19,487 bases of DNA from Thermoproteota archaeon (GCA_027491395.1 JAOZFI010000056.1:1-19487); one strand, 5' to 3'; shown: positions 1 through 19,487, numbered from the stretch's first letter. Notes: a model not told the origin generated them from the letters alone. Made by a program: numbers and translations.

Positions 1-256
1 TGTCCTTGACCGGACCATCGTAGTCCTCGAAATGGATCCAATCCACTCGAGCGCCCTCGGGTATCATCACCCTCACATCTGATTCGAAAGCTCTCACCGC
101 TTCATCGTCCCCCTCGTAGAGGGCCTCCACCATCTTCTTTCCCACGTTACGAGCTTGGAAGCCAGTCAAGTCATGTTCACTGGCCAAGTTTAGGAGGAAC
201 ATGCGGTATCCTGTATCTTGGACCCTCTCCCCCTCTATGATCAGTCTTCTCTTCAT
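1..256 (-). CDS. Acylphosphatase-domain protein, copy A (5' part only; runs off the left end)
   Basis: Manual translation from ATG at 256: MKRRLIIEGERVQDTGYRMFLLNLASEHDLTGFQARNVGKKMVEALYEGDDEAVRAFESDVRVMIPEGARVDWIHFEDYDGPVKD. The VQxxGYR loop and the G..ARN Asn match acylphosphatase catalytic residues. No stop codon before the window edge. Confidence 0.85.
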   Translation of the reverse strand, partial: MKRRLIIEGERVQDTGYRMFLLNLASEHDLTGFQARNVGKKMVEALYEGDDEAVRAFESDVRVMIPEGARVDWIHFEDYDGPVKD

Positions 257-278
257 CGCGGGAATATCAGCAAGATCC

Positions 279-286
279 TATATAAG
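279..286 (-). promoter_or_regulatory. TATA box (CTTATATA) of acylphosphatase copy A
   Basis: Lies about 23 nt upstream of the ATG at 256 and is homologous to CTTAAATA at 19201-19208 of copy B. Confidence 0.6.
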
Positions 287-435
287 AGTTGCCAGACATT
301 CAACAAATTCGGTTGAGTTTTCGAAAGTTTTATGGTTAGATTTATGGGAATAGGGAGAGATAGGATAGGAAGGGATAGGGGAGTGAATCTAGCTTCAACC
401 CAGAGTACAATGCTCTTTACCCAAGCTGTTTCCAG

Positions 436-1548
436 CTACAATCCACTCAGCAGATCGCTAAACCTCCTGAGCCCTTCCCTTAACTCCTCGCTATCACCCC
501 CGAAGCCTATCCTGAAGTGTCCCTCCATCTCAAAGCAACAACCCGGTACCAAGAACACCCTCTTCTCCCTGATCAGCCTGAGAGCCAGCTCCTCTGAGGG
601 CATGTCGAGGGTGTAGCGGGGGAAGGCCACAGTTCCAGCCCTCGGTGGAATCCAGTCGATGAGGGATTCTGACTCTACCCAACCCTTCAGTATCTCGAAG
701 TTCCTCCTGACTATCCCCAAATTCCTCTCGTAGATCCTCTCCACATTCTCCAAGGCAAGTAGGGCGAGATGCTCGAGGAGGATGCTGACGCTTATGGTCG
801 TGTAATCCCTGTGGGACATAAGCTCCTTCATCACCTCCTCATCCCTTGTGGCTATCCAGCCGAGCCTGAGGCCAGTCAGCGACAGGGACTTGGAGAAGGA
901 CCTTGTAACGATGGCTCTATCGCAGAGGTCGAGCATGGAGGGAACCTCATCGCTGAATATGTTCAGCCCATGGTAGGACTCGTCGGCCAGCACGTAAGCT
1001 CCGTACCTATCGGCTATCTCGCATATATGGGACAGATCCTCCCGATCCAGCAGGAGACCGGTGGGGTTGTGAGGGTTGTTTATCACTACAATCTTCGCTC
1101 CCTCGGCCAGCCTTGACAACTCCTCGAAGTCGGGATACCAGGAGTCCTCCTCTCTCAAGCGTAGCAGCCTTATCTCAGCACCGAATGCCTTAGGCAGGCT
1201 GTAGAGCTGCTGGTAAGCCGGGAAGATCGATACTACCTTATCACCCGGTTCGACGAGGCTGAAGAAGACGAGAAAGTTTGCGTCTATGGCTCCTCTAGAT
1301 ATGAGCACGCCCTCAGGGCTCAGATCGCGGTACAGACGGGAGATCTCCTCCCTAAGCTCAGGAAGTCCCTCCACGTAACCGTAGGTCAGTGGGAGGTCCC
1401 TCAGCTCGTTCAAATACTCCTCCTTGCCAACGAACCTCAGGAACTCCCCCAAAGAGAAGGGCTTCACGCATGTCTCGGCCAAGTTCAGCTCGACATCATG
1501 CTCGTACTTACCGATGAACCTCTCGACCAGAAACGGATCGACCTTCAT
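436..1548 (-). CDS. PLP-dependent aminotransferase, class I/II
   Basis: Motifs NNPHNPTG, DESY and SFSKSLSLTGLRLGW (PLP Lys), plus C-terminal FRIGFG; 370 aa. Confidence 0.93.
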   Translation of the reverse strand: MKVDPFLVERFIGKYEHDVELNLAETCVKPFSLGEFLRFVGKEEYLNELRDLPLTYGYVEGLPELREEISRLYRDLSPEGVLISRGAIDANFLVFFSLVEPGDKVVSIFPAYQQLYSLPKAFGAEIRLLRLREEDSWYPDFEELSRLAEGAKIVVINNPHNPTGLLLDREDLSHICEIADRYGAYVLADESYHGLNIFSDEVPSMLDLCDRAIVTRSFSKSLSLTGLRLGWIATRDEEVMKELMSHRDYTTISVSILLEHLALLALENVERIYERNLGIVRRNFEILKGWVESESLIDWIPPRAGTVAFPRYTLDMPSEELALRLIREKRVFLVPGCCFEMEGHFRIGFGGDSEELREGLRRFSDLLSGL

Positions 1549-1566
1549 CGGTGCGCCGGGAAGGTC

Positions 1567-1989
1567 TCAGATAAAAGGACCCTCCCCGATCCTGACCCGC
1601 AACTCCCTGAATCCCTTCCCCTCCCTCCAGATGAAGGCCCCGATCCTGACTCTGGGAACTGAGATTATCACGTAGAGGAAGCTTGGATGGGCCTTCTCCT
1701 CATCAATCTTGGATGGGAAGGCCTTTCCTAGGGGATGACTGTGATAAGCGCCCACGATCTCCATGCTCTCCTTCTCGGCTTCGAGGAAGGCCCTGTACAT
1801 GTCCTCGGGATCTATCTCGTATCTCAGTGGTGTATCTGATATGTTCTTCGCTCTATAAGCTCTTTTAATCGAGAAGCCCTTACTTCTAACCTTTTCACCA
1901 GCTAGGAGGCCGCAAGCCTCTCTAGGGTACTCTGAGAGGGCGTGACTCACTATGCTATCTCTAACTCTCTTTGGGATGAAGACCTCCAT
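1567..1989 (-). CDS. JAMM/MPN+ (M67) zinc metalloprotease, desampylase-like
   Basis: N-terminal EACGLL Glu and the JAMM motif HSHPLGKAFPSKID (HxH-x7-S-x2-D). Lies 18 nt upstream of the aminotransferase on the same strand. Confidence 0.92.
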   Translation of the reverse strand: MEVFIPKRVRDSIVSHALSEYPREACGLLAGEKVRSKGFSIKRAYRAKNISDTPLRYEIDPEDMYRAFLEAEKESMEIVGAYHSHPLGKAFPSKIDEEKAHPSFLYVIISVPRVRIGAFIWREGKGFRELRVRIGEGPFI

Positions 1990-2042
1990 CTCGCTGCCGC
2001 TCGGTCAAGCAGTTTAAGCGTATCACTCAACACTCGCTATGA

Positions 2043-2050
2043 TTTAATAC
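2043..2050 (+). promoter_or_regulatory. TATA box (TTTAATAC) for the C/D sRNA
   Basis: About 20-27 nt upstream of the predicted sRNA 5' end; divergent from the JAMM gene TATA at about 2012-2019. Confidence 0.55.
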
Positions 2051-2069
2051 GGGGCAGGGCAGTGTACTT

Positions 2070-2131
2070 TGGGGCGATGAAGCTGGAGGGGACATCTGAA
2101 GCATGATGAGACACCCCTCAGGCTGAGCCCA
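2070..2131 (+). ncRNA. Archaeal box C/D sRNA (2'-O-methylation guide type)
   Basis: C box GCGATGA 2074-2080, D' CTGA 2096-2099, C' ATGATGA 2103-2109 and D CTGA 2123-2126. Spacers are 15 and 13 nt, with a terminal stem TGGG/CCCA. About 60 nt, intergenic, with its own TATA. Confidence 0.85.
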
Positions 2132-2354
2132 GTCCTAGGATTGCGGCCCAACTCCGGGACGAAATGAAATGACATTGATGGAGAGTTATGGGGGGTGTTC
2201 ATGAACGATGCACCCGTATTACCAGCTCGCGCGCGTGGTTGCTCCTCCTTCTGTGAATTACCTTAGGGGATATGATGCTCTTACTTCTACGTGACTCGGC
2301 CTCATCCAGCGTCCAACGGGAAATCCTTATTAGGCTAGAGTAGTTGACTGATCG

Positions 2355-2717
2355 ATGGCCAGAAGGGTAAAAGTCATCCTCTATGGACTTTTCCCCACCG
2401 TTTACTTCACCGCATCTCCATGCTGCCGCCTCCCAACTCCCGAAGTTGAGCATGGGGAGGAGCAAATCTCGGAGTACCCTTGGTGGATGGTTCATGATCT
2501 CATGCAGGCCGCGGAGATAGCTAGGAGGCTGTCGAAATATGGGAGGAGGGTGAAGGTCGACTTGGTCAGCGCGGACTCTCTCAAGGGCATCTGGATATCC
2601 CTGAGGTACGGTCTGAGGGGAGAACCCTCAGCCATAGTCGATGACTGGGTCTTCAAGGGGCCCTCGCTGGACCCCGACTCGGTCGAGGAATTCGTCAGGA
2701 ACCTGCTCCAGAGGTGA
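2355..2717 (+). CDS. Hypothetical protein, possibly thioredoxin-like fold, with a CC motif
   Basis: 120 aa with host-like codon usage, SPCCR near the N-terminus and a P-x2-IVD strand motif. TATA-like CCTTATTA lies about 23 nt upstream. Confidence 0.7.
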   Translation: MARRVKVILYGLFPTVYFTASPCCRLPTPEVEHGEEQISEYPWWMVHDLMQAAEIARRLSKYGRRVKVDLVSADSLKGIWISLRYGLRGEPSAIVDDWVFKGPSLDPDSVEEFVRNLLQR

Positions 2718-2719
2718 AT

Positions 2720-2950
2720 TCATATCTTCTCGACTTTTATGGCCTCTACAGGGCAGGACATCGCCGCATTTTCCACGCACTCCTTCAACTCATCGGGCAC
2801 CTCGCCAACAGAGATGGCATCTGACAGCTCAACCGAGTACTTGTCCACCACCCTGTTCTTCCCCTCTAGCACGAAGACCTCGGAGCATAGAGTCGGGGCG
2901 ACCCCGCAGGCTATGCAGGACTCCCTATCCACGGTAACTCTCAGGGTCAT
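2720..2950 (-). CDS. Single-cluster ferredoxin (archaeal type) with atypical CxxCxxA motif
   Basis: VTVDRESCIACGVAPTLCSEVF ... CVENAAMSCPVEAI; 76 aa. Confidence 0.88.
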   Translation of the reverse strand: MTLRVTVDRESCIACGVAPTLCSEVFVLEGKNRVVDKYSVELSDAISVGEVPDELKECVENAAMSCPVEAIKVEKI

Positions 2951-3162
2951 ACTCCTATAAGTATGTTATACATAATAAAGATGACTTGAAATAGCATCAT
3001 TAGGGAGGGCATCCGGCTCGCATCGGACCATTTCTCAAGGTGGTTAGTTGGGATGCCCATTCATAGGCCACCTTGGTCAGCCCGTAGCGCGCTCACGCCA
3101 TTAGGTGACGAACTAGGCGCCTTCCACGTAGGAGAGGAATAGACATCCCAAGAGGGGCTTAG

Positions 3163-3363
3163 AGAAGGTCCCTAGAGGGAAGGATCGTAGATGGAAGGCT
3201 GGCCTCCAAGCTAGCATCAGCAGCGAGACTTAGGACCCTGCCGGTACACCGGTACTGGGAGATCTCGGATGAGTTGCTTTATGAGAGCGTTAAGAGAGGC
3301 TTGAGGGATTTCAAGGAATACGCGGAGAGGGTGTCGAGATGGAGCTCAAGTACTACGAAATGA
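3163..3363 (+). pseudogene. HEPN/DUF86 (HepT-like) RNase toxin remnant, C-terminal half
   Basis: The frame from 3163 reads RRSLEGRIVDGRLASKLASAARLRTLPVHRYWEISDELLYESVKRGLRDFKEYAERVSRWSSSTTK*. It has an in-frame TAG at 3160-3162 and no ATG, and it overlaps the start of the downstream MNT gene as in HEPN-MNT operons. Confidence 0.75.
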
Positions 3364-3740
3364 ATGAGGAGGAGATCAGGAAGCTGGTTGAAGATCTCAG
3401 GGCCAAGCTAGAGGCTTATGAGGATATAGTGTTCGCCTATATCCATGGAAGCTTCCTCAAGGGTAGATTCAGAGATGTGGATGTTGCTATCTGGATCAAG
3501 GGAGGTAAAGCAGATGCATTTCACTACACGGTGGAGGTCTCAGCGGAACTCTCTAAGGAGTTCCCGGTAGATCTTCATGTGCTGAATGAGGCCCCTGTTT
3601 CCTTTCAATACCAAGTCTTCACTGGAGGAAGGCTCTTGTTCTCGAGAGATGAGAAGATAAGGTCGGAGGCTATGGATAGGGCCCTCAAGATGCATCTAGA
3701 CTCCAAGGAACTCCTCAGGTCCCTGAGTGCGACTCGCTAA
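3339..3740 (+). CDS. Minimal nucleotidyltransferase (MntA-like antitoxin)
   Basis: FAYIHGSFLKGRFRDVDVAI (GS...DxD) and VDLHVLNEAP; 133 aa. Confidence 0.9.
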   Translation: MELKYYEMNEEEIRKLVEDLRAKLEAYEDIVFAYIHGSFLKGRFRDVDVAIWIKGGKADAFHYTVEVSAELSKEFPVDLHVLNEAPVSFQYQVFTGGRLLFSRDEKIRSEAMDRALKMHLDSKELLRSLSATR

Positions 3741-4402
3741 CCATTTTGAGGGTGCGGACAGATATCCCGTTATAGCCCTTGCGGACGATAGATCCCGTGT
3801 AAGAGATCAGAAAGGTTTGCAGCCTATTCTAACCAGATCTCGCGGATTAACTTCACCCTCAAGTACTGCTGCCAATGGCCCCACCACTCGGAGAGTGAGG
3901 ATTCTGTCGGTGTAGCAGGTCATGATCCAGTGAAAGGCCAGGAGACTCCTCTAGGCTTATGTCCTAGGACGGAGAGGATGTCATCACGCCTCGCCAACCT
4001 TGGTATCCTCGGCCCAGAACGGATTTCAACCCCTAAATCCATCTTCCTATCCCCCGAAGTTATTATGAATACGAGGTTATCCTCTCAACGAAGACTAGGG
4101 ATTTCGAGACCTGCTAAGCGGGACATTCAGGGCCTCAGCCGCCTCCTCAGGGGTTCTTCCACTCATCTCACGTCCGAGAAACTCTCTCTATCCCTAGAAC
4201 TTCAATCATATGTAGGAGCTCTCTCACAGGATCCACATGCCTGAACGCTCGGGGACAATATGACCCCTTTAGGGATATATGACTACAATAGCTACCCCTA
4301 CTCCCGCGTTCAGCCATAGAGGGGGCGATTGGGACCAATGGACCTTACAGCCCATCCAGTCAATATCTGCAACTTTATTAGCCGGGACAGGTCTACCAAA
4401 CG

Positions 4403-4723
4403 ATGCTCCCGATAGTCGTCGAGGCCTCCGCCTCGGAATCATGGCTGGACTCGGTGATAAAGTTCTCCCAAGAGCTCAGGTCCCACTTCGGCAGGAGGCT
4501 CCTCAGGGTTATAGCCCTTCCCAGCCCCGATCAGGAGGTCCACGATTCCAATGTCCTCGTGGTCCTCGACAGGTACGACCTGGGCGATGTGGATGCTGTC
4601 ATAGAGATAGCCTCGCGCATCGATGAGAGGATAAACCCCTTGGTCGCCAGCGCAGATGAGGAGGACGAGGTGGAGGCCTTCCTCCAGGCCGGTGGTAGGG
4701 ATGTCCAAGCTAATCAAGTCTAG
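4403..4723 (+). CDS. Divergent MNT-fold protein, partner of the downstream HEPN
   Basis: MNT-like size and pattern (F...L...FG.RLLRVIAL...DSNVLVVLD...INPLV), but lacks the GS and DxD motifs. Overlaps the HEPN gene start. Confidence 0.7.
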   Translation: MLPIVVEASASESWLDSVIKFSQELRSHFGRRLLRVIALPSPDQEVHDSNVLVVLDRYDLGDVDAVIEIASRIDERINPLVASADEEDEVEAFLQAGGRDVQANQV

Positions 4724-5063
4724 GGTCCTTATAGAGGAGGCGGAGAAGGACTTGGAGCACGGTTCCTACAACAAGGCGGTCTCTGCATCTTATTTTGCCG
4801 CTAGGTTACTGGTCGAGCATTTGATAAGGGGTTTGAAGACATCGAAGGACGATAAGATAGCTAATGCCCTTCAAAGACGGTTAGATGAGAGAATAGGGGA
4901 GGAAAGAGCTCGAGATATAAAGGAGAGGTATCTCAAGCTCTTCATGAGGAGGAAGATCGCTGATCACAAGCCATATCTCTTCTCGAAAGAAGAGGCGGAA
5001 TGGGCGGTATTGGAAGCTAAGAGGCTGATGAGGGAGATAATGGAAGCCCTCTCCCCAAGGTGA
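4701..5063 (+). CDS. HEPN domain protein
   Basis: AEKDLEHGSYNKAVSASYFAA and RKIADH (R-x4-H) ... FSKEEAEWAVLEAKRL. Start reassigned to ATG 4701 after GGTGG, in frame with ORF 4656-5063. Confidence 0.85.
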   Translation: MSKLIKSRVLIEEAEKDLEHGSYNKAVSASYFAARLLVEHLIRGLKTSKDDKIANALQRRLDERIGEERARDIKERYLKLFMRRKIADHKPYLFSKEEAEWAVLEAKRLMREIMEALSPR

Positions 5064-5097
5064 ACGCTTAAGTCTTGCCGGAACTTTTCAACCCCAA

Positions 5098-7032
5098 ATG
5101 AAAGTCGCTTGTCAGAGAGATTGCCTCGATGGTTGTGTCCTAATCTTGGAGGGTGAAGGTCCTGAGGCCTCGGTGCGCGGCGATCCCGATCACCCGGTCA
5201 CCAAGGGGTTCGCATGTCCAAAGGCCCTGAACTTCCCTCACTACTATTCCAGCGGAAGGAGGGTCCTCTACCCACATATCAGGACCGAAAGCGGGTTCAA
5301 AAGGGCGAGCTGGGATCAGGCCTTGGACGTAATCGCCTCCAAGCTTAAGGAGGTAATGAGGGAATACGGCCCACAGGAGATCCTCATATTCAACTACTCT
5401 GGTAACACGGGACTGATAAACTTCAACTATCCACTCAGGCTTGCCTACGCCCTCAACGCCTACCGGGTGCAGTACACGATCTGCGACGAGGCTGGTGAAC
5501 TCGCGCTGGAGCTTCACTACGGGATGCGCTATGGAGCCCTCCCGGAAGACCTTGAGAGGGCTGAAATGGTCGTGGTGTGGGGTGCAAACCCGGCCTCGTC
5601 CAGCGTGCACGCCTATCGGATCCTGGTGGATCTGAAGGTCAGGGGGGCACCCATCTGGGTGATCGACCCTAGAAGGACGAGAACATCTCTGCTGGGGAAT
5701 TACGTCAGGATAAAACCGGGAACCGATTCCTTACTAGCAGCGGGCATCTCTTGGTACCTGATAAATGAGATCGGTGTAGACGAGGCCTTCATATCGAAAT
5801 ACACGGTGGGCTTCGAAGAGTACGCTCGACATATCTCCAAGTACACTCCCGAGCTCGTGGAGGAGGTTACCGGGGTTCCCAAGGAGATGGTAAGGGAACT
5901 GGCAGAAGAATACGCTGAACTTAAGCCCAGCGTCACGTATATCGGTGTGGGAATGCAGAAGACAAAGTATGGGGCCGAAGCCGTCCGCACCATCTCCCTG
6001 ATACCAGCGCTGGTGGGAGTTCACAGGGGTTTCTTCTTCTGCAACTCGTCCCGTGACTTCGACACCGCCTACCTGCAGGGCAGGCATCTGGGAGAGGACA
6101 GGAGGGTTAACATGCTGGACGTTCCCTCCATGCTCTCGCTAGGTCGCTTCAAGTTCCTCTACATCTACAACTCAAATCCCGCAGTTACCCTACCTAGGTC
6201 AGACCTCTTCCGAGAGGGAATGGGAAGGGAGGACCTGTTCTCCGTGGTGCACGATGTGATGTGGACCGAGACGGCTGAGCTGGCTGACGTAGTACTCCCG
6301 GCCCCCGGGATGTTCGAGCAGGAGGATTTCATCGCAAGTTGGTGGCACCCCTATCTGGCCTACTCCCCCAAGGCTTGGGAGCCGCTCGGGGAGAGCAGGC
6401 CTAACTGGTGGGTCGTCCAGAAACTAGCCGGGAAGCTAGGGATGGAGACGCCTGAACTCAAGGAGGATCCTATCCGAGCGTTCAAATGGGCTGTGAGGGG
6501 AAGTGGAATGCTCAGGGTACCTGTTGAGGAGGTGATGAAGAGGTGTTATGTGAGGCTGGAATACCCGCCGAAGCACGAGTACCAAACCCCCTCCGGCAGG
6601 ATAGAATTCTACAGCAGTACAGCGGAGAGGCTTGGTTATTCTCCCCTTCCGGTCTTAGGGTGGGAGGAGGTTGATCCCGATCATCCCTACATCCTAATCA
6701 CTAGCTCGATTCCGGGGAGGACATCCTCGCAGGATGCCATGCCCGAGGATCTCCCGGTGAGGGATCACATACACATCAGCTGTGAGGATGCGGACAAACT
6801 GGGAATGAAATCAGGAGATCTGATTCTCATTCGCTCTCCGTGGTCAGAGGCTATCGCGACGGTCGCGATCGACGACTCCCTTCCCAGTGGAGTGCTGTGG
6901 GCTAGGAGATCAGCTAAGTTCATCAAGGGCGCGGTCAACGATCTCCTGCAGGACGAAAAGCAGGTTATAGCCGGTGGGAACTCGCTCAACAGTAGCAGGG
7001 TATCGATCGAGGCGCTGGTCAGTGAGAGTTAA
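5098..7032 (+). CDS. Molybdopterin-dependent oxidoreductase (DMSO reductase superfamily) with N-terminal 4Fe-4S site
   Basis: CQRDCLDGC...GDPDHPVTKGFACPKA; TICDEAG (putative Mo Cys ligand); VVWGANP; TETAELADVVLPA; TPSGRIEF; C-terminal MGD-binding barrel. Confidence 0.92.
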   Translation: MKVACQRDCLDGCVLILEGEGPEASVRGDPDHPVTKGFACPKALNFPHYYSSGRRVLYPHIRTESGFKRASWDQALDVIASKLKEVMREYGPQEILIFNYSGNTGLINFNYPLRLAYALNAYRVQYTICDEAGELALELHYGMRYGALPEDLERAEMVVVWGANPASSSVHAYRILVDLKVRGAPIWVIDPRRTRTSLLGNYVRIKPGTDSLLAAGISWYLINEIGVDEAFISKYTVGFEEYARHISKYTPELVEEVTGVPKEMVRELAEEYAELKPSVTYIGVGMQKTKYGAEAVRTISLIPALVGVHRGFFFCNSSRDFDTAYLQGRHLGEDRRVNMLDVPSMLSLGRFKFLYIYNSNPAVTLPRSDLFREGMGREDLFSVVHDVMWTETAELADVVLPAPGMFEQEDFIASWWHPYLAYSPKAWEPLGESRPNWWVVQKLAGKLGMETPELKEDPIRAFKWAVRGSGMLRVPVEEVMKRCYVRLEYPPKHEYQTPSGRIEFYSSTAERLGYSPLPVLGWEEVDPDHPYILITSSIPGRTSSQDAMPEDLPVRDHIHISCEDADKLGMKSGDLILIRSPWSEAIATVAIDDSLPSGVLWARRSAKFIKGAVNDLLQDEKQVIAGGNSLNSSRVSIEALVSES

Positions 7033-7100
7033 CGAATTTCCCCGCATGAACCCTCATAGGAAGGATTATCATATTCCCTCCCCTCATTCTTGGGATTCTC

Positions 7101-8357
7101 ATGAAGGTAGGAGATGTACTGAAGGGAGATGTACCCGTCGGGAGCGTGGTTGAGCTAGAGGGAACTATAACTGAGATACTTCCATCCTTCTCACTAGGGG
7201 ACATAGTTTACGAGAGGTTCTCGTTGGAAGACGGTACGGGGCAGCTCACTGTGATCTTACCCTCCTCACCTAAGTACTTCCTCCCCGACGACAGGGTGAA
7301 GGTGAGGGGAAGAGTCAGACCCTGCCCTTACGCCCCGTCAGTGACCTGTTTGGAGACATCGGGGGACGACATCGACATCTTGGAGTGGAAGTGGATAGAA
7401 CCCAGATTCAGGGAAGAAGCTGCAAAGAGAGGAGCATTCGATGTAAATGCCCTCCTCCAAGTCACCAAGTTCGACCGGGAGCTCATCAGAGGGGTAATCG
7501 AGACCGGTCTGGATCCTCTCAAGATGAGGGAGAAGTTCGAGGAGAACCTATCCTCCAGAAGGGATGTGAGGTACTTGGTGGATACTATAGCGGCAATGGC
7601 CATGTACGCCATATTCCTCAGGGATCTACCGGCTGCGAAGAGCGTGAAGACCACCCTGTACTTGCTGAGAGACCTGAACCTCCCTGAGAGCGAGCACAGG
7701 GTTCTGGAGCTCCTAGGTGAGATGATCGATGCTTTAGTGAGCAGGGAAGGTCTGGCTCCCTACATATCACCGCCAGAAGCCGTTCAAGGAGTAGTGGAGA
7801 GGTACCCCGTGGCGGAGGAGGAAGAGATAGAGGGTCTCCCGAGGCTCGGCTTTCTGGCTAGGAGGATAATAGAGGATCTCAGGGAGGGGAAGAAGGAGTT
7901 CCTGATAGTGGAGATATCCGATGGCTCCCAAGTGATGGAGGCGAGAAAGATGGTGGAGGTAGCTGCGGGAGTCGCAAAAGCGAAGCTCTACTACATGCCA
8001 ATCTCATCGCTCAGCTCGGTCGAGGGGATGAGCCAGGTGATATCGGACCTCAAGAGCATAGTGGAGGGAATAAAGCCGGATGAAAAGGTGATTTTCTACA
8101 TGGAGGGGCTTGAGCTCCTCGTTCCCAGCGAGAGGATGATGGAGATGATGAAACTCACTCCTCAAGGGGTATCAGCGGCCAAGGCGTTCAAGGCCGATCT
8201 CACGAAGACGCTGGAGTCCCTCTTGGAGAAGGTCGTCGTGGTGTCCGTGACCAGCTCAAAGGTCCTTATAGACGACGAATTGGCCTCCAAGGCAACTCAG
8301 ATAGTCTCGGGCGAGACGGGGATGGGAATAAGCGGAGGAGGGTACCCTCCCTACTGA
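7101..8357 (+). CDS. Uncharacterised protein: N-terminal OB fold plus C-terminal degenerate AAA-like domain
   Basis: VELEGTI...FSLEDGTGQLTV...DRVKVRGRV fits an OB fold. KLYYMPISSLSS...KVIFYMEGLELLVP resembles the AAA Walker B region, but there is no GxxxxGK[ST]. Confidence 0.75.
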   Translation: MKVGDVLKGDVPVGSVVELEGTITEILPSFSLGDIVYERFSLEDGTGQLTVILPSSPKYFLPDDRVKVRGRVRPCPYAPSVTCLETSGDDIDILEWKWIEPRFREEAAKRGAFDVNALLQVTKFDRELIRGVIETGLDPLKMREKFEENLSSRRDVRYLVDTIAAMAMYAIFLRDLPAAKSVKTTLYLLRDLNLPESEHRVLELLGEMIDALVSREGLAPYISPPEAVQGVVERYPVAEEEEIEGLPRLGFLARRIIEDLREGKKEFLIVEISDGSQVMEARKMVEVAAGVAKAKLYYMPISSLSSVEGMSQVISDLKSIVEGIKPDEKVIFYMEGLELLVPSERMMEMMKLTPQGVSAAKAFKADLTKTLESLLEKVVVVSVTSSKVLIDDELASKATQIVSGETGMGISGGGYPPY

Positions 8358-8759
8358 TCACTCCCTCAATATAGTCATCACGGGCCTCCTAGTTGCCTTA
8401 GCAACTCTCTCCGAGATACTCCTCCCCACGACCTTTCCCAATCCCTTTCTCCTTCTCTTGAACATGATTATCAGGTCGTACTTCCCCTCCTCAGCCTCCT
8501 CGACTATAGCGTCGGCCACATCCCTCGCCTCGGCCACGACTACCCTAGTGGGAATACCCATAGTCCTCAGCTCTTGAGCTAGATCCCTCAACCACTCGGG
8601 AGTGTTCACTTCAACGTCGAGGGGCGTGGTTATGGGGACCTTCACCACATGAAAGATTGTCAATTCGCTCCCCCCTTCGAGTTGGGAGAGTGCCGCCACT
8701 ATTTCCCTTGCATCCACCCTATCTTTGAGGGGGAGCAGCACCTTTCTCAGTTTAACCAC
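8358..8759 (-). CDS. Universal stress protein (UspA family)
   Basis: KVLLPL...LTIFHVV...DVADAIVEEAEEGKYDLIIM...GRSISERVAKATRRPVMTI. Confidence 0.9.
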   Translation of the reverse strand: MVKLRKVLLPLKDRVDAREIVAALSQLEGGSELTIFHVVKVPITTPLDVEVNTPEWLRDLAQELRTMGIPTRVVVAEARDVADAIVEEAEEGKYDLIIMFKRRRKGLGKVVGRSISERVAKATRRPVMTILRE

Positions 8760-8818
8760 CTCTCCTTATCCCCAGCAACCGTTTTAAGCTCTTTCTACAT
8801 CCTGAGCTCTAGGTGGAA

Positions 8819-9160: not shown

Positions 9161-9208
9161 GAGCATCACTTCTAATAACTTATATGTTCATCAGAACAAC
9201 AACTTCTA

Positions 9209-10417: not shown

Positions 10418-10419
10418 TC

Positions 10420-11130: not shown

Positions 11131-11212
11131 GCGCCGAGCTGCCCCGAAGAGGTTAAAAGGTTATCATCCACTGGGACCTCAAGTTTTTTCTCCTCTCCGC
11201 TCGCGATCCCAT

Positions 11213-12178: not shown

Positions 12179-12774
12179 GGCTCAGGTTAGGGATCCCCGT
12201 CGCTAGAGTGATCTTGGGGGCGGAGGCCTCCACATATAGGGAGGTGGGCCTGTGCCTCGACCTCTTCTTCTCCAAGTGGGCCTCCTCCCTCGACGAGTTC
12301 GTACCCCTCTTAATACCCAAGCAAAGGTGTAATGAGGCTGAAGGTAGACCGCACCTCGAGCTCGAACCCCTAGTAACTCCTAAGGAGTTCGTTGAGAGGT
12401 TCTCGATCGCATATAGGAGGTACGCCGAGCGGGTGTATGATCTCAGGGAGAAGCTGCTTCAGGTGAGGAGATCCTATCGCTTCAACCTCCTGATTCCTCC
12501 CTCATCGTCGCAGCTTCGGGCTGAAGACATGCTAGTGAAGGAGATAGGGTTGATCGAGGGTTCCGTGAGGGGAGTCAATCTAGTACTGGGGCTCGACGAG
12601 TGGGATAAGGTCGAGGAGGTGAGTTTGATAGCGTGGCAAGGTAGTTCGATGCTGTTTGACGTGCTCTCTCCAAGGGGTTACTTCAGGTTCGGGAATAGGT
12701 CTAACCTCCTGACTACGCTGATAAGATCAAATCCCCAGCTACGGGATTTCCTCTCGTCCTTGACCAATGATTAG
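12175..12774 (+). CDS. Hypothetical protein, probably co-transcribed with the cyclodeaminase-family gene
   Basis: 199 aa; TTG start overlaps the upstream TGA; host-like codon usage; no recognisable motif. Confidence 0.7.
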   Translation: MRLRLGIPVARVILGAEASTYREVGLCLDLFFSKWASSLDEFVPLLIPKQRCNEAEGRPHLELEPLVTPKEFVERFSIAYRRYAERVYDLREKLLQVRRSYRFNLLIPPSSSQLRAEDMLVKEIGLIEGSVRGVNLVLGLDEWDKVEEVSLIAWQGSSMLFDVLSPRGYFRFGNRSNLLTTLIRSNPQLRDFLSSLTND

Positions 12775-13002
12775 CACTTCTTAGCACTCCCCTAATTGAA
12801 GGGAGTGGTTCAAACCTGGAGCTATTGGCCTCATGTCGGGCCGGTTTCCACAACCACTCGCTTAATTTGATCAAGGATAGCCTCGCGATACTAGGCCCAC
12901 GCTCCTCGGTTAATTGGTTAGGGTGAGATGAAAACCGGCATCGAGCGATCCAAAACCAAAAATATGACCCATGAGGTTCCAGTAAGATCAATCGGGGAGA
13001 TC

Positions 13003-13692
13003 TCACTCCTCAGTGAGCCTCCTGTAGAGTCTTCTACCGGTATCGTTTCGCACGTATCCGTTTTCCAGAGCTGGTATCACGAGATCGGGCCGGTCCGTGG
13101 TGATGGCGTCCACGCCCATCCTAGCCAAGGCGAGGGCCTGCTCCGCATCGTTCACTGTCCACACGTACGTGAGGCCACCCACCTCCCTCATCTCGCTCAG
13201 AAGAGCCTCGTCCACATAGGAGAGCTCGACTGACAGCCCGTCAGCCATCGCATCAGCCATGACTTGGGCGGGCCTGGCCGGCCTGCCCTGTATAGACGCT
13301 AGCATCAAGTAGTTGCCTTTTAGCTCCGGTCTGAGCTTCCTGAGGATGTTGTGGTACTTGGAGCTGATCGCGACTCTCCCGTCCCCCGGCAGGGAGCTGA
13401 AGATCTTGGGATTCACCTCGGGGGTCTTGAGGTCTACGACTAGGGCGACATCTCTCTCCACGATCTCCCTCACGATCCTGTCTAGCGATTCGCCCTTGGG
13501 TTCTGGGAAGAAGATTCTCCTCAGCAGAGCCTCCCTTAAAGTAGCTGGCTTTATGCTAGTTATGTGTCTGACCTCGCTCCCCGTTATGTCAACCTCCACC
13601 GCGTCGACTCCCAGCTGGAGGTAGAGCCTGAGCTTAGTGAGGGTGTTCGCCCTATGCCCGACTATGAGCGGACTCATCCGGGGAGCTTGCAT
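13003..13692 (-). CDS. Glycerophosphodiester phosphodiesterase family protein
   Basis: IVGHRAN, AVEVDI, VDLK, YVWTVND and GVDAITTDRPD. The start may be slightly downstream (MSPL). Confidence 0.88.
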   Translation of the reverse strand: MQAPRMSPLIVGHRANTLTKLRLYLQLGVDAVEVDITGSEVRHITSIKPATLREALLRRIFFPEPKGESLDRIVREIVERDVALVVDLKTPEVNPKIFSSLPGDGRVAISSKYHNILRKLRPELKGNYLMLASIQGRPARPAQVMADAMADGLSVELSYVDEALLSEMREVGGLTYVWTVNDAEQALALARMGVDAITTDRPDLVIPALENGYVRNDTGRRLYRRLTEE

Positions 13693-13760
13693 CCTAACAA
13701 TTTAAACGTGCCTGAGCCAGCCAGAACCGAGCTGGGACATCGTATAATGGGGAGATCCAT

Positions 13761-15533
13761 CTAGCCTTCACGCAATATCTCCCTAGCGAGCCCCACTAGA
13801 TTGACCATGACCAGTAAGAGGCCCCCGTCATCTCCCAAAGCGACAGCTGCCCACAGTGGGATGTAACCGATCACTCCAAGCAAAGCTGCTACAGCTTTGA
13901 AGATACCCACCAAGGCCATATTCGACCAGAAGGTAGATACTACGGACCTAGAAGCCCTGAACAGCCATGGCAGTGACGGGATGCCTGACACAAGGGCCAC
14001 ATCGCCCGCCTCGATCGAGGCCTCCAAACTGCCGACGGCCACACCCAAGTCGGCCGCAGCGAGAGCTGGGGCATCGTTTATTCCGTCACCGACCATCGCG
14101 ACGTATCCGAACTCCTTCAGCCTCCTAACGATCTCTACCTTCCCTTCTGGGGAGAGATCCGCATAGAGCTCATGGATCCCCAAGCCCTCGGCCACCGGTC
14201 TGGCGCTCTCCTCCCTGTCACCGGTGAGCATGGCAACGCGGAGACCCATCTCCTTCAGTTGTTCGACCACCTCCCTAGCCATGGGATTCACCTCATCCCC
14301 GAGCGACACGTAGCCGTACTTCCCCCTCACCGAGGCATGAACGACGACACTCCCACTCATAGCCTCCTCAACCCCGACGAAGGATGCCCTCCCGGCGACC
14401 ACCTTCGCTCCCTCTACTAACCCCCTTATCCCCTCGCCCGGTACCTCCTCCACTTCCTCGGGTATCGAGAGCTTCAGGCCCATCCTCTTGGCTTCCTCCA
14501 CAAGAGCTCTGGCCACGGGATGCTGCGAGGCCAGCTCTAGGGAGGCTAACAGTCTGAAATCCTCCACATCCATGTGTAACTCCCTCACTACCAGCCTCCC
14601 CAGTGTGAGAGTACCGGTCTTGTCTATGGCTACAATCCTTACCTTGGCGGCCATCTCGACAGGAGCGGATCCCTTGAACAGAACTCCCCTCCTCGCAGCC
14701 ACAGCCAGCGATGTGAGGGTCGTGGCCGGAGCGGCGACGAGGAAGGCGCTTGGACAGGCGACGGCGACCAAGACTATGGCTGCCCTCACCCCTAGGAAGG
14801 CCCATGCCAGCGCGGAGAGGGCGAGCATCGATGGGAGGTAGTACTTGCTGAACCTCTGGACCAGCCTTTCTCCGGAGGACTTCCTCTCCCTGAACTCTTC
14901 CACCATGGCGAGTATGCGCGAGATGAATGCCTCCCTCCCAACCTTAAGGGCTCTGATGACCAGGCTTCCCTCGACTAGAAGGGAGCCGGAGTGGACGTAG
15001 CTGCCTACCTCCACCCTCACGGGGAGTGGCTCGCCAGTCACCACCGACTGGTCTAGGTGACCCCTGCCCCTGACCACCAGACCATCCACGGGGATCCTCT
15101 CTCCCCTAGCCACTACCACTAGGTCACCTCTCCTTATGGAATCGAACTCCACCTCTAGGAGGGAACCGTCCCTCTCCACCTTGGCCTTCCTCGGGAGGTA
15201 CTCCATCAACTCCTTCAACCCGGACTCGGCTCTCTTCATTGCCACATGCTCCAGTATCTCGGCCAGTCCGAACATCCCGAGGAGGAGGATACCCTCAAGG
15301 TGGAGGTCTAGCCAGTAGGTGAGGGCACCAACCCCGACCATCAACAGGTTAACCGCATGCTCTATCTCCGCCTTTCTCTCGTGGAGCACCTCCCACACCG
15401 TGTAGGAGGAGATCATGACTACCAGTAAGAGGAGTAGAAGCGAATCCAAGCCCTCTATACCGGTTATGTGCAAGATCACGGATGTCAGCGACGCGATCAG
15501 CACCGAAGCCCAGAAGAGATCCTCCAGCTCCAA
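13761..15533 (-). CDS. Heavy-metal-translocating P1B-type ATPase without an N-terminal metal-binding domain
   Basis: TGEP, ACPSA, DKTGTLT phosphorylation site, SQHP, MLTGD and GDGINDAPALA. Confidence 0.94.
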   Translation of the reverse strand: MELEDLFWASVLIASLTSVILHITGIEGLDSLLLLLLVVMISSYTVWEVLHERKAEIEHAVNLLMVGVGALTYWLDLHLEGILLLGMFGLAEILEHVAMKRAESGLKELMEYLPRKAKVERDGSLLEVEFDSIRRGDLVVVARGERIPVDGLVVRGRGHLDQSVVTGEPLPVRVEVGSYVHSGSLLVEGSLVIRALKVGREAFISRILAMVEEFRERKSSGERLVQRFSKYYLPSMLALSALAWAFLGVRAAIVLVAVACPSAFLVAAPATTLTSLAVAARRGVLFKGSAPVEMAAKVRIVAIDKTGTLTLGRLVVRELHMDVEDFRLLASLELASQHPVARALVEEAKRMGLKLSIPEEVEEVPGEGIRGLVEGAKVVAGRASFVGVEEAMSGSVVVHASVRGKYGYVSLGDEVNPMAREVVEQLKEMGLRVAMLTGDREESARPVAEGLGIHELYADLSPEGKVEIVRRLKEFGYVAMVGDGINDAPALAAADLGVAVGSLEASIEAGDVALVSGIPSLPWLFRASRSVVSTFWSNMALVGIFKAVAALLGVIGYIPLWAAVALGDDGGLLLVMVNLVGLAREILREG

Positions 15534-15586
15534 GCTTCTCCCCTTGAGCTAGAGGGTCCCTTAAATAATATGCTCCCCCCACCTCA

Positions 15587-16084
15587 ATGATGGAGATGGA
15601 TTGGAAGGACCTCCTGATAGATCTGTACATGAGGAGAGCGGAAAAGAACGTCTTAGAGGTAGGTACAGGTTTCGGATCTAACCTATCTCTCCTCTTGGAG
15701 GTCTTCCCAGATTCTACGATAGTGACAGTTGATCCCGAACTCTCCGCATCGAACAGGATTCCTCAAGGGGTTCATTTCGTCCAATCCAGGGCCGAAAGCC
15801 TGCCCTTCCGGGACGAATCCTTCGATCTGCTCTCGACCGTTGCCACGATTCACCACCTCACCGACGTTCAGGCAGCGCTTGGCGAGTTCAGGAGGGTACT
15901 CAGATGCACCGGCAGGCTGGTCATAATGGACTGGACCCCCGATTCTAGGTACAATCCACATGGGAGGGAGAAGGTGGTGAGGAGCATGGAAGAGGTAATG
16001 TCCTCCGTAGATCACTATGTACAGGTCATCCACATGGAGGAGGAAGAGGATTACTATGTGATATGCGGGGCCAAGCCTTGCTGA
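15587..16084 (+). CDS. Class I SAM-dependent methyltransferase (short, Methyltransf_11-like)
   Basis: VLEVGTGFG, AESLPFRDESFD, TIHHL and EFRRVLR..GRLVIMDW. Divergent from the P1B ATPase. Confidence 0.85.
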   Translation: MMEMDWKDLLIDLYMRRAEKNVLEVGTGFGSNLSLLLEVFPDSTIVTVDPELSASNRIPQGVHFVQSRAESLPFRDESFDLLSTVATIHHLTDVQAALGEFRRVLRCTGRLVIMDWTPDSRYNPHGREKVVRSMEEVMSSVDHYVQVIHMEEEEDYYVICGAKPC

Positions 16085-16103
16085 GCTGGCGATAAACCTA
16101 AAT

Positions 16104-16138
16104 ATGATAATACCAATTATCATAATGAGAATTATCAT
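16104..16138. promoter_or_regulatory. Tandem overlapping palindromic operator-like element
   Basis: ATGATAAT-ACCA-ATTATCAT (16104-16123, perfect arms) and ATCATAAT-GAGA-ATTATCAT (16119-16138), with a 15-nt period, ending at the ATPase start codon. Confidence 0.6.
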
Positions 16139-17465
16139 GTTTGTGAACAGGAAGGAGGAGCTGGAAGCCCTGAAAGAGAGGCTGGAATCTGACTCGTTCG
16201 AGTTCATAGTGGTGATGGGGAGGAGGAGAGTCGGGAAGACCCGTCTCATCTTGGAAGCTGTCAAGGGAAAGGATTACATCTATTATCTGGCGGTTGAAGG
16301 CGGTAACTTAAGATACTTCAAGCTGACGGCATCTCGCCTCGTTCCTCAGGCTAGGTACGCGATGGAGGATTGGGAATCTATATTCGCTTTCCTGAAGGAC
16401 AGGATAGTGGTTATAGACGAATTCCCTAACATGGTGAAGGAGGATCCTAGGGTCGTCTCGGTCTTCCAGAGGATAGTGGACTTACACCTGCGCGGTACTA
16501 GGACGAAGCTGATTTTGTGCGGTTCCTCAGTCTCCATGATGAAGGACAAGGTCCTCTCCTACAAGAGCCCATTGTACGGCAGGAGGACCTCCACCCTCAA
16601 GCTGGGTCCCCTGAGGTTCCCCGATCTCAGGGAGTTCTTCCCCTCCTCAAGTTGGGAGGAGCTTGTAGAGATATACGGCTTCGCTGACGGGGTTCCCTAC
16701 TACCTGAGCAAGGTCAGGACACCCTTCTGGTCTTGGTTGAAGAGCGAGCTAAAGTCACCAGACACGTTCCTCAAAGAGGAGGTAGACTTCCTGCTCAAAT
16801 ACGAGTTCACCGAGCTATCCACCTACAGGAAGATATTGGAGGCCATAGCCCACGGGAAGAACACTCCCAAGGAGATAAGGGACTATACGGGGTTAAGTCA
16901 CTCGGACCTAACTTCCTACCTGAGAAACCTGATGGATGTGGAGCTCGTGGTCAGGGAGGTCCCGGTCACTGAGAGGTGGAGCTCCAAGAGGGGACGCTAC
17001 TACTTAGCGGACAACTTCCTCACCTTCTGGTTCAGGTTCGTGGCGCCAAACCTCTCCCTCATAGAGGAGGGACTTCTAGACGTGGAAACTGTGAGAGCGA
17101 GTTACCCGCAGTATTTAGGAATTATCTTCGAGAAGGTGGCGAGGGAGGTCATGATAAGCCTCATCAGAAGTGGGAGACTTGGCATGAGGGTTACAAGGCT
17201 CGGCAGGTGGTGGGGGAGAGGTGAGGAGATAGATCTGGTGTTGGTAGACGATGAGAAGAGAAAAGCGCTACTCATGGAGGCCAAGTGGTCTGATTTAAGC
17301 TCTAAGGATGTGAGAAGGGTTGTCAGGGAGCTGATGCGCAAGGGACAGCTCTTATTAGAGGGATACGATAAGGAATACCTGATTGTAGCTAGGAGGGCCG
17401 AGGAAGTTGAGGGGGTAAGGGTACTGGACCTCAGATCGTTTGATGAGGTCTTCGGGGGAGCTTGA
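16137..17465 (+). CDS. Archaeal ATPase (ATPase_2/DUF234 type) with wHTH and C-terminal PD-(D/E)xK-like domain
   Basis: MFVNRKEEL, Walker A GRRRVGKT, Walker B VIDEFP, LCGSS, SPLYGRRT, DNFLTFWFRFV and GRWW..EEIDLV....EAKW. Start reassigned to ATG 16137. Confidence 0.92.
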   Translation: MFVNRKEELEALKERLESDSFEFIVVMGRRRVGKTRLILEAVKGKDYIYYLAVEGGNLRYFKLTASRLVPQARYAMEDWESIFAFLKDRIVVIDEFPNMVKEDPRVVSVFQRIVDLHLRGTRTKLILCGSSVSMMKDKVLSYKSPLYGRRTSTLKLGPLRFPDLREFFPSSSWEELVEIYGFADGVPYYLSKVRTPFWSWLKSELKSPDTFLKEEVDFLLKYEFTELSTYRKILEAIAHGKNTPKEIRDYTGLSHSDLTSYLRNLMDVELVVREVPVTERWSSKRGRYYLADNFLTFWFRFVAPNLSLIEEGLLDVETVRASYPQYLGIIFEKVAREVMISLIRSGRLGMRVTRLGRWWGRGEEIDLVLVDDEKRKALLMEAKWSDLSSKDVRRVVRELMRKGQLLLEGYDKEYLIVARRAEEVEGVRVLDLRSFDEVFGGA

Positions 17466-17485
17466 TTGATTCTCCGGTGGGATTG

Positions 17486-18925
17486 TTATTCCAATCCCAG
17501 ATGATGGAGCATGTGATGGTAGTGATCGACGGGCATGAGGTGCCAGAAGGCCCTCTCCACCACTTCGGACAGGGCCGGGTGGATGTGCATCCCCGTGGAT
17601 ATGGCCATGTATGTGGGGTCCCTCGAGTACATTAGTGTAACGATCTCCTGTATCAGGATTGAGGCGTGGGGCCCTATTATGTGAGCCCCCACTATGACGC
17701 CGCTCTCCGCATCGACTATCACCTTAACGAAGTAGTCTTTGACGCCCATTGCCTCACCTTTGGCCGTGTCCTCGTATCTGTGGAACCCTATGAGCACTCT
17801 GTCCTTTCCAAGCTTCTCTACGGCTTCAGCCTCTCTCATACCCACGGAGGCCACCTCCGGGTAGGTGAAAACGGCGTGAGGAACTGCGTGGTAGCTCATC
17901 TTGACCTTGTGGCCCATTATGTTGTAGAAGATGACCTTGGACTCGTAGTTGGCCACGTGCTTGAACAGGTACTTGCCGTTCGCATCACCACAGACCCAGA
18001 CTCCCGGCTGGGAGGCCTCCAGATACTCGTTCACCTTTATCCAGCCCTGCTCATCCGTCTCTATGCCAGCCCTCTCCGGATGGAGTATGTCGGTGTTGGG
18101 TGCTCTGCCGGCAGCCACCAAGATCTCGTCAGCGACGAAGCTCACCTCCTCACCCGTCTCCCTGTTTATCGCGATGAGTTCCTTCTTACCGTCGGGCGTC
18201 TTCCTGGCCTTAACGACCTCGTGATTCGTGTATATGTCCACGAACTTTCCCAGCTCCCTCTTGGCCAGCTTAGAGACTTCAGGCTCCTCTTGAGGTAGGA
18301 ACTGGGGATTCCTTCCTATGATGGTTACCTTGGTGCCCATCGCTGAGAAGAAGTGGCCGAATTCGGCCGCTATATAACCTCCCCCAATTATCGCGAGGGA
18401 ATCGGGCCTCTCGAAGAGGTGGAAGATGGTCCTGTTGGTGTGATAGCCTACCTCCTCCAGCCCCTCTATCGGGGGGATGTAGGGCTTCGATCCCGAGCAG
18501 AGGAGGATGAGGTTCGACTTGATCAGCTTGTCACCCACCTTAAGCGTGTAGGGGGCGACGAACTCCGCCACCTCCTGATAGTAGTCGATGTTGGGGTGCT
18601 GGCTTAACCCCTTCCTTATCATCTCTATCTCCGGATCTATCAGGCTGCGCATTCTCTTCATTACCCTCTCGTAGTCTACCTTCCTTATCTCGACATCTAT
18701 GCCGAAACGATGGGCATCCTCCACGATCCTGAGGACATCGGCGGAGTGTATGAGGATCTTGGAGGGAATGCATCCCCTCGTGAGGCAGATGCCTCCCGGC
18801 TCGTCCTTGTCTATCACGGCTACCTTCATATCAGGATTGTGGTGGAGGAGTCCATCCATTATGTTCATGGCCGTGCCAGTACCTATGGCTATGGCGTCAT
18901 ACTCAATGGGCCCAGGCATGTCCAT
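17486..18925 (-). CDS. Class I pyridine nucleotide-disulfide oxidoreductase (dihydrolipoamide dehydrogenase / mycothione reductase-like)
   Basis: GGICLTRGCIPSK redox disulfide, IIGGGYIAAEF, GRAPN, FTYPEVASVG and HPALSE His-Glu pair. No MerA-type C-terminal CC. Confidence 0.92.
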   Translation of the reverse strand: MDMPGPIEYDAIAIGTGTAMNIMDGLLHHNPDMKVAVIDKDEPGGICLTRGCIPSKILIHSADVLRIVEDAHRFGIDVEIRKVDYERVMKRMRSLIDPEIEMIRKGLSQHPNIDYYQEVAEFVAPYTLKVGDKLIKSNLILLCSGSKPYIPPIEGLEEVGYHTNRTIFHLFERPDSLAIIGGGYIAAEFGHFFSAMGTKVTIIGRNPQFLPQEEPEVSKLAKRELGKFVDIYTNHEVVKARKTPDGKKELIAINRETGEEVSFVADEILVAAGRAPNTDILHPERAGIETDEQGWIKVNEYLEASQPGVWVCGDANGKYLFKHVANYESKVIFYNIMGHKVKMSYHAVPHAVFTYPEVASVGMREAEAVEKLGKDRVLIGFHRYEDTAKGEAMGVKDYFVKVIVDAESGVIVGAHIIGPHASILIQEIVTLMYSRDPTYMAISTGMHIHPALSEVVERAFWHLMPVDHYHHMLHHLGLE

Positions 18926-18945
18926 CCCGGCCTAGAAGAATATGT

Positions 18946-18953
18946 CTTTAAAG
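18946..18953. promoter_or_regulatory. Palindromic TATA box CTTTAAAG, possibly bidirectional
   Basis: Lies about 21-28 nt from the reductase start (18925, minus) and about 20-27 nt from a GC-rich hairpin cluster starting at 18973 (plus). Confidence 0.5.
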
Positions 18954-19159
18954 TACTTGACTCTCGCGAAGGCCCGCGCTAACGAACTGGCGGGATAGGT
19001 CCCAAATCCGAAGTAGATCCTCCGAGGGACCCAGAAGGGCTAAGACTGGCCCAACGCAGGCCCTCATCTAGCTGCCAGCTGGGCAGACTAGGGGCTGCAC
19101 ATTATAATTACCCCGAACTCCCATGACTGCTGAGTACTTTGAGGCGTAATAGTGCTGAT

Positions 19160-19487
19160 ACTTTCGGAACTTTCTTATCTATGTCACACGCTTGATAACT
19201 CTTAAATACGATCTCGATGATCCTTTAAACGATGGAGAGGAGGCTTATTATCGAGGGAGAGAAAGTTCAGGACATAGGATACCGCATGTTCCTCCTAAAT
19301 CTAGCTGGTGAACATGACTTGACTGGCTTCCAAGCTCGTAACGTGGGAAAGAAGGCGGTAGAGGCCCTCTACGAGGGGGACGATGAAGCGGTGAGAGCTT
19401 TCGAATCAGATGTGAGGGTGATGATACCCGAGGGCGCTCGAGTGGATTGGATCCATTTCGAGGACTACGATGGTCCGGTCAAGGACA
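19160..19487. repeat. Right arm of the inverted repeat (pairs with 1-328)
   Basis: Reverse complement of the left end; the last 127 nt are identical. Confidence 0.97.
19232..19487 (+). CDS. Acylphosphatase-domain protein, copy B (5' part only; runs off the right end)
   Basis: MERRLIIEGEKVQDIGYRMFLLNLAGEHDLTGFQARNVGKKAVEALYEGDDEAVRAFESDVRVMIPEGARVDWIHFEDYDGPVKD; 5 amino-acid differences from copy A in 85 codons. Confidence 0.85.
   Translation, partial: MERRLIIEGEKVQDIGYRMFLLNLAGEHDLTGFQARNVGKKAVEALYEGDDEAVRAFESDVRVMIPEGARVDWIHFEDYDGPVKD

Follow-up and report, generated by a model that had tools for sequence, protein, structure and literature searches.

Does a 19-kb segment of a korarchaeal chromosome, bracketed at both ends by the same gene in mirror image, turn around in its place, and by what means would it do so? 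The question is raised by contig C52 (G000:C52) of the korarchaeal metagenome-assembled genome (MAG) G000, which comprises 62 contigs with a total of 1.72 Mb and is 98% complete. The window analysed here is the whole of this contig, 19,487 nt in length. Both of its ends carry the beginning of a gene of one family, here called ACYP-cc, and a preliminary description made from the sequence had proposed that the two copies bracket an invertible cassette with a shufflon-like exchange of gene 3' ends or, as a simpler reading, that a multi-copy paralog family had broken the assembly. We consider it probable that the locus reflects homologous recombination and gene conversion between inverted paralogs, in the manner of the tuf genes, and not a shufflon.

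Inverted gene copies at the contig ends

The two ends of the contig form an inverted repeat with arms of 258 nt (1-258 and 19230-19487) that are 92% complementary. The next longest inverted pair within the window measures only 33 nt at 73%, and the terminal repeat is far above chance expectation. The outermost part of the arms is perfect, as positions 1-127 are the reverse complement of positions 19361-19487 with no mismatch and the first mismatch is found at position 128. Start codons were found at position 256 on the minus strand and position 19232 on the plus strand, which are mirror positions (19487-19232+1 = 256), and from them two outward-facing open reading frames (ORFs) of 85 codons each run off the opposite contig ends. 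The left and right 85-aa products are the same at 80 of the 85 residues and both match the Pfam family Acylphosphatase (PF00708), with E-values of 9.5e-12 and 8.4e-12 and scores of 45.5 and 45.7 bits (cut-off 22.5). Weaker similarity extends about 35-75 nt upstream of both start codons, within promoter elements common to the two copies. Within the MAG, the first 300 nt of the window were found to match only the two ends of C52.

The arms, start codons, ORFs and Pfam matches were all re-measured, and the earlier account of mirror-image 85-codon gene starts with identical outermost 127 nt proved correct throughout. It was also right in taking the window to hold only the 5' halves of the genes, as the full-length ACYP-cc ORFs in relatives encode 145-222 aa. 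The components of the repeat are given below, where WL denotes the aminotransferase end and WR the oxidoreductase end of the bracketed block.

1..256, minus strand: left (WL) copy of ACYP-cc, codons 1-85 (2-256) and the first base of codon 86, running off the contig
19232..19487, plus strand: right (WR) copy of ACYP-cc, codons 1-85 and one base, running off the contig
1..127, unstranded: outer part of the left arm, perfectly identical; k=127 overlap with the collapsed repeat node; gene nt 129-255
19361..19487, unstranded: outer part of the right arm, perfectly identical; reverse complement of 1-127
128..258, unstranded: inner part of the left arm, diverged; gene nt 1-128; 84% identity to 19230-19360
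19230..19360, unstranded: inner part of the right arm, diverged; 84% identity to 128-258

A collapsed repeat with two copies

De Bruijn assemblies break contigs at collapsed repeats and leave contig ends that overlap by k. The perfect 127-nt identity had been attributed to such a k-mer overlap, with the expectation that the identity would continue past both edges of the window, and both suppositions were borne out. Four pairs of contig ends in the MAG have exactly 127 nt in common, namely the start and end of C52, the ends of C15 and C17, the ends of C28 and C32, and the starts of C32 and C53. These repeated exact overlaps fit a final assembler k of 127, and the window ends differ in nothing from collapsed-repeat breaks in general, being an ordinary assembly effect. 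The C28/C32 and C32/C53 overlaps indicate that further collapsed repeats exist in this MAG.

Beyond exactly 127 nt that they have in common, the ends of C15 (34,457 nt) and C17 (7,084 nt) are unrelated. This common sequence consists of the last 41 codons, the stop codon and one further base of the same gene, so that both ends carry its identical 3' end. The two parts of the gene are joined in P0014, a protein of 151 aa from a large protein collection, the first 85 residues of which are exactly those of the left copy and the last 41 residues exactly the C-terminus encoded by the common C15/C17 end. The 3' halves of both genes, whose recovery had been sought, are thereby represented by the C15 and C17 ends. 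If P0014 corresponds to the true gene, its length implies that 74 nt are missing between the window edge and the C15/C17 ends and that the collapsed repeat measures 127+74+127 = 328 nt. The shortest contig of the MAG is 2,017 nt, and a repeat node of about 328 nt would therefore have been too short and would have been dropped.

The assembly graph at this locus is a four-way junction, with the left and right ends of C52 on one side of the repeat (about 328 nt) and C15 and C17 on the other. A node with many copies leading to unrelated loci had been considered beforehand, but two exits per side were found among the binned contigs. The repeat has exactly two copies and its outer neighbours are C15 and C17. 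The simpler reading of a paralog family breaking the assembly is true as well and does not conflict with homologous recombination inverting the block now and then.

Conversion tracts in the two copies

In G000, 108 of 128 positions match between the two copies over gene nt 1-128, and the copies do not differ between nt 129 and the stop codon. The reverse pattern was observed in G010, the MAG of the sister species, where the copies are identical over nt 1-134 and agree at 107 of 127 positions over nt 129-255; beyond nt 255 they are nearly identical save for a 21-nt indel. Within the converted tracts of both G000 and G010, each copy resembles its partner in the same genome more than its positional counterpart in the sister genome. 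The identical tracts differ between the two genomes and, judging from these alignments, the copies have undergone concerted evolution by conversion after the species split. With about 328 nt of perfect identity and a further 128 nt at 84%, the arms have enough length and similarity for homologous recombination.

Orientation of the block in related genomes

A total of twenty four loci were compared, seven of which are junctions of the block while the remaining seventeen are paralogs elsewhere or lack informative neighbours. The outer flanks are referred to as FA, the C17-like flank (GNAT, DUF3160 and LUD genes), and FB, the C15-like flank (aldo/keto reductase and others). In G002, a contig of 883 kb (G002:C4) is collinear with the whole window and shows the order FA – gene – WL ... 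WR – gene relic – FB. In G010, the order is WL – gene – FB on contig C12 and WR – gene – FA on contig C28, with C53-like sequence following. By these adjacencies, the block in G010 is flipped relative to G002 and to the single-copy relatives; a lack of any relative with the block inverted had been named beforehand as evidence against a flip, and G010 is such a relative. The WR – gene – FB join was found in four of the five informative relatives (G002, G012, G008 and G006) and the flipped joins in G010 alone. As a separate observation, G010:C28 passes from C17-like straight into C53-like sequence, and C17 and C53 are therefore probably neighbours.

G002 has the orientation of the single-copy relatives. 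In four of these (G012, G006, G008 and G011), FA directly abuts WL at a distance of 20-56 nt with no intervening gene copy. The block itself is collinear in G002 and in the assembled pieces of G010, G012, G006 and G008.

The second, inverted copy beside the aminotransferase was found in three of the 21 genus genomes (G000, G010 and G002). A tree was computed from 6,496 columns around rpoB for eight of the 21 genomes, picked by RpoB identity; G006 was left out as its rpoB is split over two contigs. The topology obtained is (G020,G009),(G008,(G011,(G012,(G002,(G000,G010))))), in which the two-copy genomes form one clade with a support of 82% for G002, G000 and G010 and 98% for G000 and G010.

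Probable inversion by recombination between inverted paralogs

In the explanation that we favour, the window is a block of the core chromosome of a Korarchaeum-like archaeon lying between two inverted, outward-facing ACYP-cc copies. The roughly 328 identical terminal nucleotides of these copies were collapsed by a de Bruijn assembler with a k of 127 into a single short node, and this collapse gave C52 its mirror-image ends and C15 and C17 their place as its two outer neighbours. The copies exchange sequence by homologous recombination, presumably through RadA, which is present in the MAG (PF08423, E 7.3e-90). Non-reciprocal exchange, or gene conversion, keeps the copies alike with species-specific tracts, and reciprocal exchange would flip the 19-kb block and produce the G010 state as compared with G002. 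The simplest history would begin with a single gene copy at WR|FB; the common ancestor of G002, G000 and G010 would then have gained a second, inverted copy at FA|WL, after which the block flipped towards the G010 state or flipped back towards the G002 state. Flipping by this route is likely to be sporadic and selectively neutral and would not amount to a regulated switch.

Inverted tuf genes offer the closest parallel. In work on Salmonella (PMC8262849), recombination between the inverted tuf genes yields both conversion and inversion of the interval, and up to a quarter of the tuf recombination events, as well as 5 of 59 cassette events, carried an inversion. The tufA and tufB genes of Salmonella enterica resemble the present locus in being inverted whole-gene copies with homologous exchange independent of a dedicated recombinase, conversion tracts and occasional inversion, and differ in that their interval spans hundreds of kb around the origin whereas that of the window spans 19 kb. 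As the host here is an archaeon, RadA would act in place of the RecA/RecBCD of the tuf system. ACYP-cc further differs from tuf in being a non-essential, lineage-specific multi-copy family, and the evidence presented here is comparative.

Several observations weigh against recombination between the copies as the cause of the arrangement. The four-way graph fits C52 in either orientation. The flipped state is known from one MAG, G010, an assembly of short contigs in which a run of 136 nt at the 5' end is the same in both copies; contigs C12 and C28 both hinge on how the assembler crossed this run and are thus not independent evidence. The opposite orientations come from different genomes and none from within one population. 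That the second copy arose only once depends on parsimony and the 82% bootstrap value, and the spacers at the new junctions of G002 and G000 have no detectable homology to each other. Both copies in G002 are damaged, the left one (L025:10148-10678, minus strand) by a single in-frame TAA at codon 72, and the right one (L026:10500-10830, plus strand) being a frameshifted relic with several stops and most of the coiled coil deleted. The inverted pair is therefore not kept everywhere and is decaying in the G002 lineage.

A metagenome scan with the 85-aa protein returned five loci: the contig of G002 already described, a 1302-nt contig with only a weak match from the right-end side, and three distant paralogs with an identity of 57%. 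None of these five loci spans both flanks of a near-identical strain.

Alternative explanations

The strongest competitor is that only an assembly break is involved, with fixed inverted paralogs, a block that never inverted, and G010 contigs that were mis-joined across the 136-nt run. This identical run sits exactly at the crossing point of the G010 contigs, one wrong pairing at a node with two entries and two exits would yield both of them, and the other four informative relatives all have the same orientation. We nevertheless rate a mis-join as unlikely, because assemblers usually stop at unresolved repeats, as happened in G000, instead of guessing, and because 136 nt is shorter than common read lengths and would be resolvable by single reads. 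The conversion tracts also argue against copies that are merely fixed, as they show that the copies do recombine in G000 and G010.

A second alternative derives the inverted repeat itself from an inversion. In the staggered-break model, known from work on Drosophila inversions, a one-off inversion around a single ancestral copy leaves a duplicate at each breakpoint and would directly give the G010 arrangement; the second copy of G002 would then stem from an independent insertion or a later flip back. Starting from the single-copy state of G012, G006, G008 and G011, this model predicts the exact G010 joins, with the C17-like flank at the 3' end of the WR copy and a duplicate of promoter and gene between WL and the C15-like flank. 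The lack of detectable homology between the G002 and G000 junction spacers has also been counted in its favour, although the spacers carry no signal for or against such an origin. When the sequences downstream of the stop codon in eight copies were compared, shuffled controls were exceeded by orthologous pairs from close genomes alone. A resemblance of the G000 C17-side spacer to the downstream sequence of G006 and G008 was no better than shuffles and was dropped. If the second copy has a single origin on the tree, the G002 state, with two copies in the ancestral orientation, would still require a second inversion between copies. The duplicated unit includes the promoter and stops one base past the stop codon, which is neat for random breaks, and the conversion tracts indicate ongoing recombination in any case. 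We regard a staggered-break origin as improbable.

Recombination between the copies could also be far more active than proposed above. The inverted paralogs would then form a flip-flop without a dedicated recombinase, in which exchange through RadA is frequent, both orientations of the block coexist, and coiled-coil repeats as well as combinations of 5' and 3' parts are reshuffled. The chances of this stronger version seem slim to us. If true, it would be an analogue of the shufflon that operates by homologous recombination on a lineage-specific, co-regulated multi-copy family.

A programmed, site-specific invertible cassette in which a dedicated recombinase switches gene 3' ends or promoters is very unlikely. 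Hin, Gin and Cin invertons and the Rci shufflon are site-specific invertible elements, and the geometry of the window fits such elements, with inverted arms around a segment, outward-facing genes with variable 5' ends, and genes that cross the arms, so that an inversion would recombine their 5' and 3' parts. In G010, where the 3' parts differ, a swap would exchange a 7-aa indel and two substitutions in the 3' half and would yield chimeras. Unlike the Hin, Gin, Cin and Rci systems, however, the window lacks a neighbouring recombinase, specific short sites and alternative 3' cassettes. No recombinase, integrase or transposase was found by Pfam among the thirty window ORFs and fourteen flank ORFs (7-12 kb per flank), in agreement with the preliminary description as far as site-specific recombinases in the window are concerned. 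The whole MAG contains no match to serine recombinases (PF00239) and one match to tyrosine recombinases (PF00589), which lies elsewhere, on contig C30.

Each arm is an entire paralogous gene including its promoter, with a length of about 0.5 kb, instead of a short site, and no separate short recombination site was identified at the borders. Since the exchanged 3' parts are identical in G000, inversion alters neither protein, and with 328 identical nt and the same elements in both promoters a flip would only turn the 19-kb block around. The second arm is moreover absent from four of seven close relatives. None of the three defining features of an inverton or shufflon that were tested (a recombinase, short sites and changed expression) was found. 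For these reasons, namely the identical 3' parts, the same promoter elements, the whole-gene arms and the absence of a recombinase from the scanned window and flank ORFs, the preliminary description's shufflon-like swap or dedicated cassette was abandoned.

Finally, a mobile or extrachromosomal element with terminal inverted repeats, to which the repeats at both contig ends and the Polbeta nucleotidyltransferase and HEPN genes of the block might point, was rejected as practically excluded, since synteny places the block in the same fixed, collinear chromosomal neighbourhood in G002 (on the 883-kb contig), G010, G012, G006 and G008, its genes are metabolic or housekeeping with no integrase, transposase or replication gene in the scanned ORFs, and one of the 'terminal repeats' is absent in close single-copy relatives.

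The ACYP-cc family and its upstream elements

ACYP-cc proteins consist of an N-terminal acylphosphatase-like domain, a conserved linker, a variable number of coiled-coil units of about 25 aa and a conserved C-terminal helix, with the number of units differing between paralogs and species. The genus genomes contain from none to five copies each, often close to contig ends, and further loci compared include L027:8699-9250 and L028:2329-2859. The family is a lineage-specific multi-copy family of Korarchaeum. Database sources label its members 'acylphosphatase' from Candidatus Korarchaeota or Korarchaeum, and in a limited search of the literature on Korarchaeota and acylphosphatase we found no description of the family.

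The coiled-coil repeats are clear at the protein level only. Tandem Repeats Finder, applied to the coiled-coil part, returned one weak 21-nt array in G012 and no array in G010. In G016, an assembly gap of Ns was observed inside the repeat region.

Family members score 45.5-49.5 bits against PF00708 (cut-off 22.5). The predicted model of P0014 has a mean predicted local distance difference test (pLDDT) score of 88, and every 10-residue block up to residue 90 has a mean pLDDT of 91-98. The acylphosphatase order of strands and helices (beta-alpha-beta-beta-alpha-beta) was found at residues 2-78 of the model, followed by one long helix at residues 86-148. The top five Foldseek matches of the model are all acylphosphatases, with template modelling (TM) scores of 0.73-0.81 on the target; the match to 8jfs_A has a TM score of 0.81 on the target and a root-mean-square deviation of 2.0 A over 86 columns. 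The N-terminal domain of HypF also ranks among the best structural matches, and it is the best match by sequence among solved structures (4g9i, E 5e-6).

Among 34 family members, R18 is invariant and N37 nearly invariant; they stand at the positions of the catalytic Arg of the phosphate loop and the catalytic Asn of acylphosphatases. The phosphate loop reads V-Q-D in ACYP-cc and V-Q-G or V-Q-A in the solved enzymes. The family thus shares its fold and Pfam match with acylphosphatase (PF00708) and the HypF N-terminal domain but differs in several respects, as it adds a coiled-coil tail of 60-140 aa and is not a stand-alone protein of about 90 aa, has Asp in place of the loop glycine, and occurs in up to five copies per genome.

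Two upstream features are common to the paralogs, a TTAAATA-type box near -30 and, further out, an AAACTTTC-type element near -75, and the similarity between the paralogs stops immediately downstream of the stop codon. Of the nineteen paralog copies whose upstream regions were aligned, most have the core AAACTTTC, often extended to AAACTTTCGAAA, roughly 75 nt before the start codon, and six are without it. Conservation upstream of paralogs in many genomes suggests that both upstream regions of the window act as promoters, and the conserved element looks like a common regulator site. The 12-mer AAACTTTCGAAA occurs only twice in the MAG, at window positions 319-330 and at C8:47605, so that no regulon can be defined from it. 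The two putative promoter regions are as follows.

277..330, minus strand: putative left-copy promoter region, with the element AAACTTTCGAAA at 319-330 and, some 30 nt ahead of the ATG, a TATA-like box (about 279-288)
19160..19206, plus strand: putative right-copy promoter region, with the element ACTTTCGGAA at 19160-19169 and, some 30 nt ahead of the ATG (approximate), a TTAAATA-type box

Gene content of the block

The Pfam scan of the ORFs gave the following assignments for the bracketed block.

259..19229, unstranded: bracketed block of ordinary chromosomal genes
436-1548, minus strand: class I/II aminotransferase
1567-1989, minus strand: JAB/MPN
3339-3740, plus strand: Polbeta nucleotidyltransferase
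4656-5063, plus strand: HEPN
5098-7032, plus strand: molybdopterin oxidoreductase
13761-15533, minus strand: P-type ATPase
17486-18925, minus strand: pyridine-nucleotide disulfide oxidoreductase

The block also encodes Usp, PadR, two archaeal AAA ATPases, two methyltransferases, an ornithine cyclodeaminase-like gene and GDPD. Scans of the window for transfer RNAs and Rfam families found none. Three small unassigned ORFs lie between the Polbeta nucleotidyltransferase and HEPN genes, which may form a toxin-antitoxin-like module inside the block. Two ORFs on the plus strand, at 7101-8357 (418 aa) and 12175-12774 (199 aa), have no Pfam family at E <= 0.001, and the first of them shows only a sub-threshold hint of an OB-fold.

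The divergence of the window from G002 is a mosaic, with 68-76% identity over the left 3 kb (1-3400), followed by 86% and 91% (3490-19486). The rpoB surroundings of G000 and G002 are 92.5% identical. Either replacement or faster evolution may have affected the left end of the block.

Significance

At the level of the chromosome, C15, repeat, C52, repeat and C17 make up one stretch of about 61 kb, the middle of which fits the graph in either orientation. The locus also marks the ACYP-cc family as one that repeatedly breaks contigs in assemblies of Korarchaeum. For the biology of this uncultivated archaeal lineage, in which recombination has, to our knowledge, scarcely been documented, the locus provides a small and clear-cut case of inverted paralogs that undergo gene conversion and have probably inverted the DNA between them. 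The relatives add a dated series of states, from a single copy to an inverted pair that is then flipped or decayed. The mechanism is an ordinary one in an unusual lineage and does not constitute a new switching mechanism.

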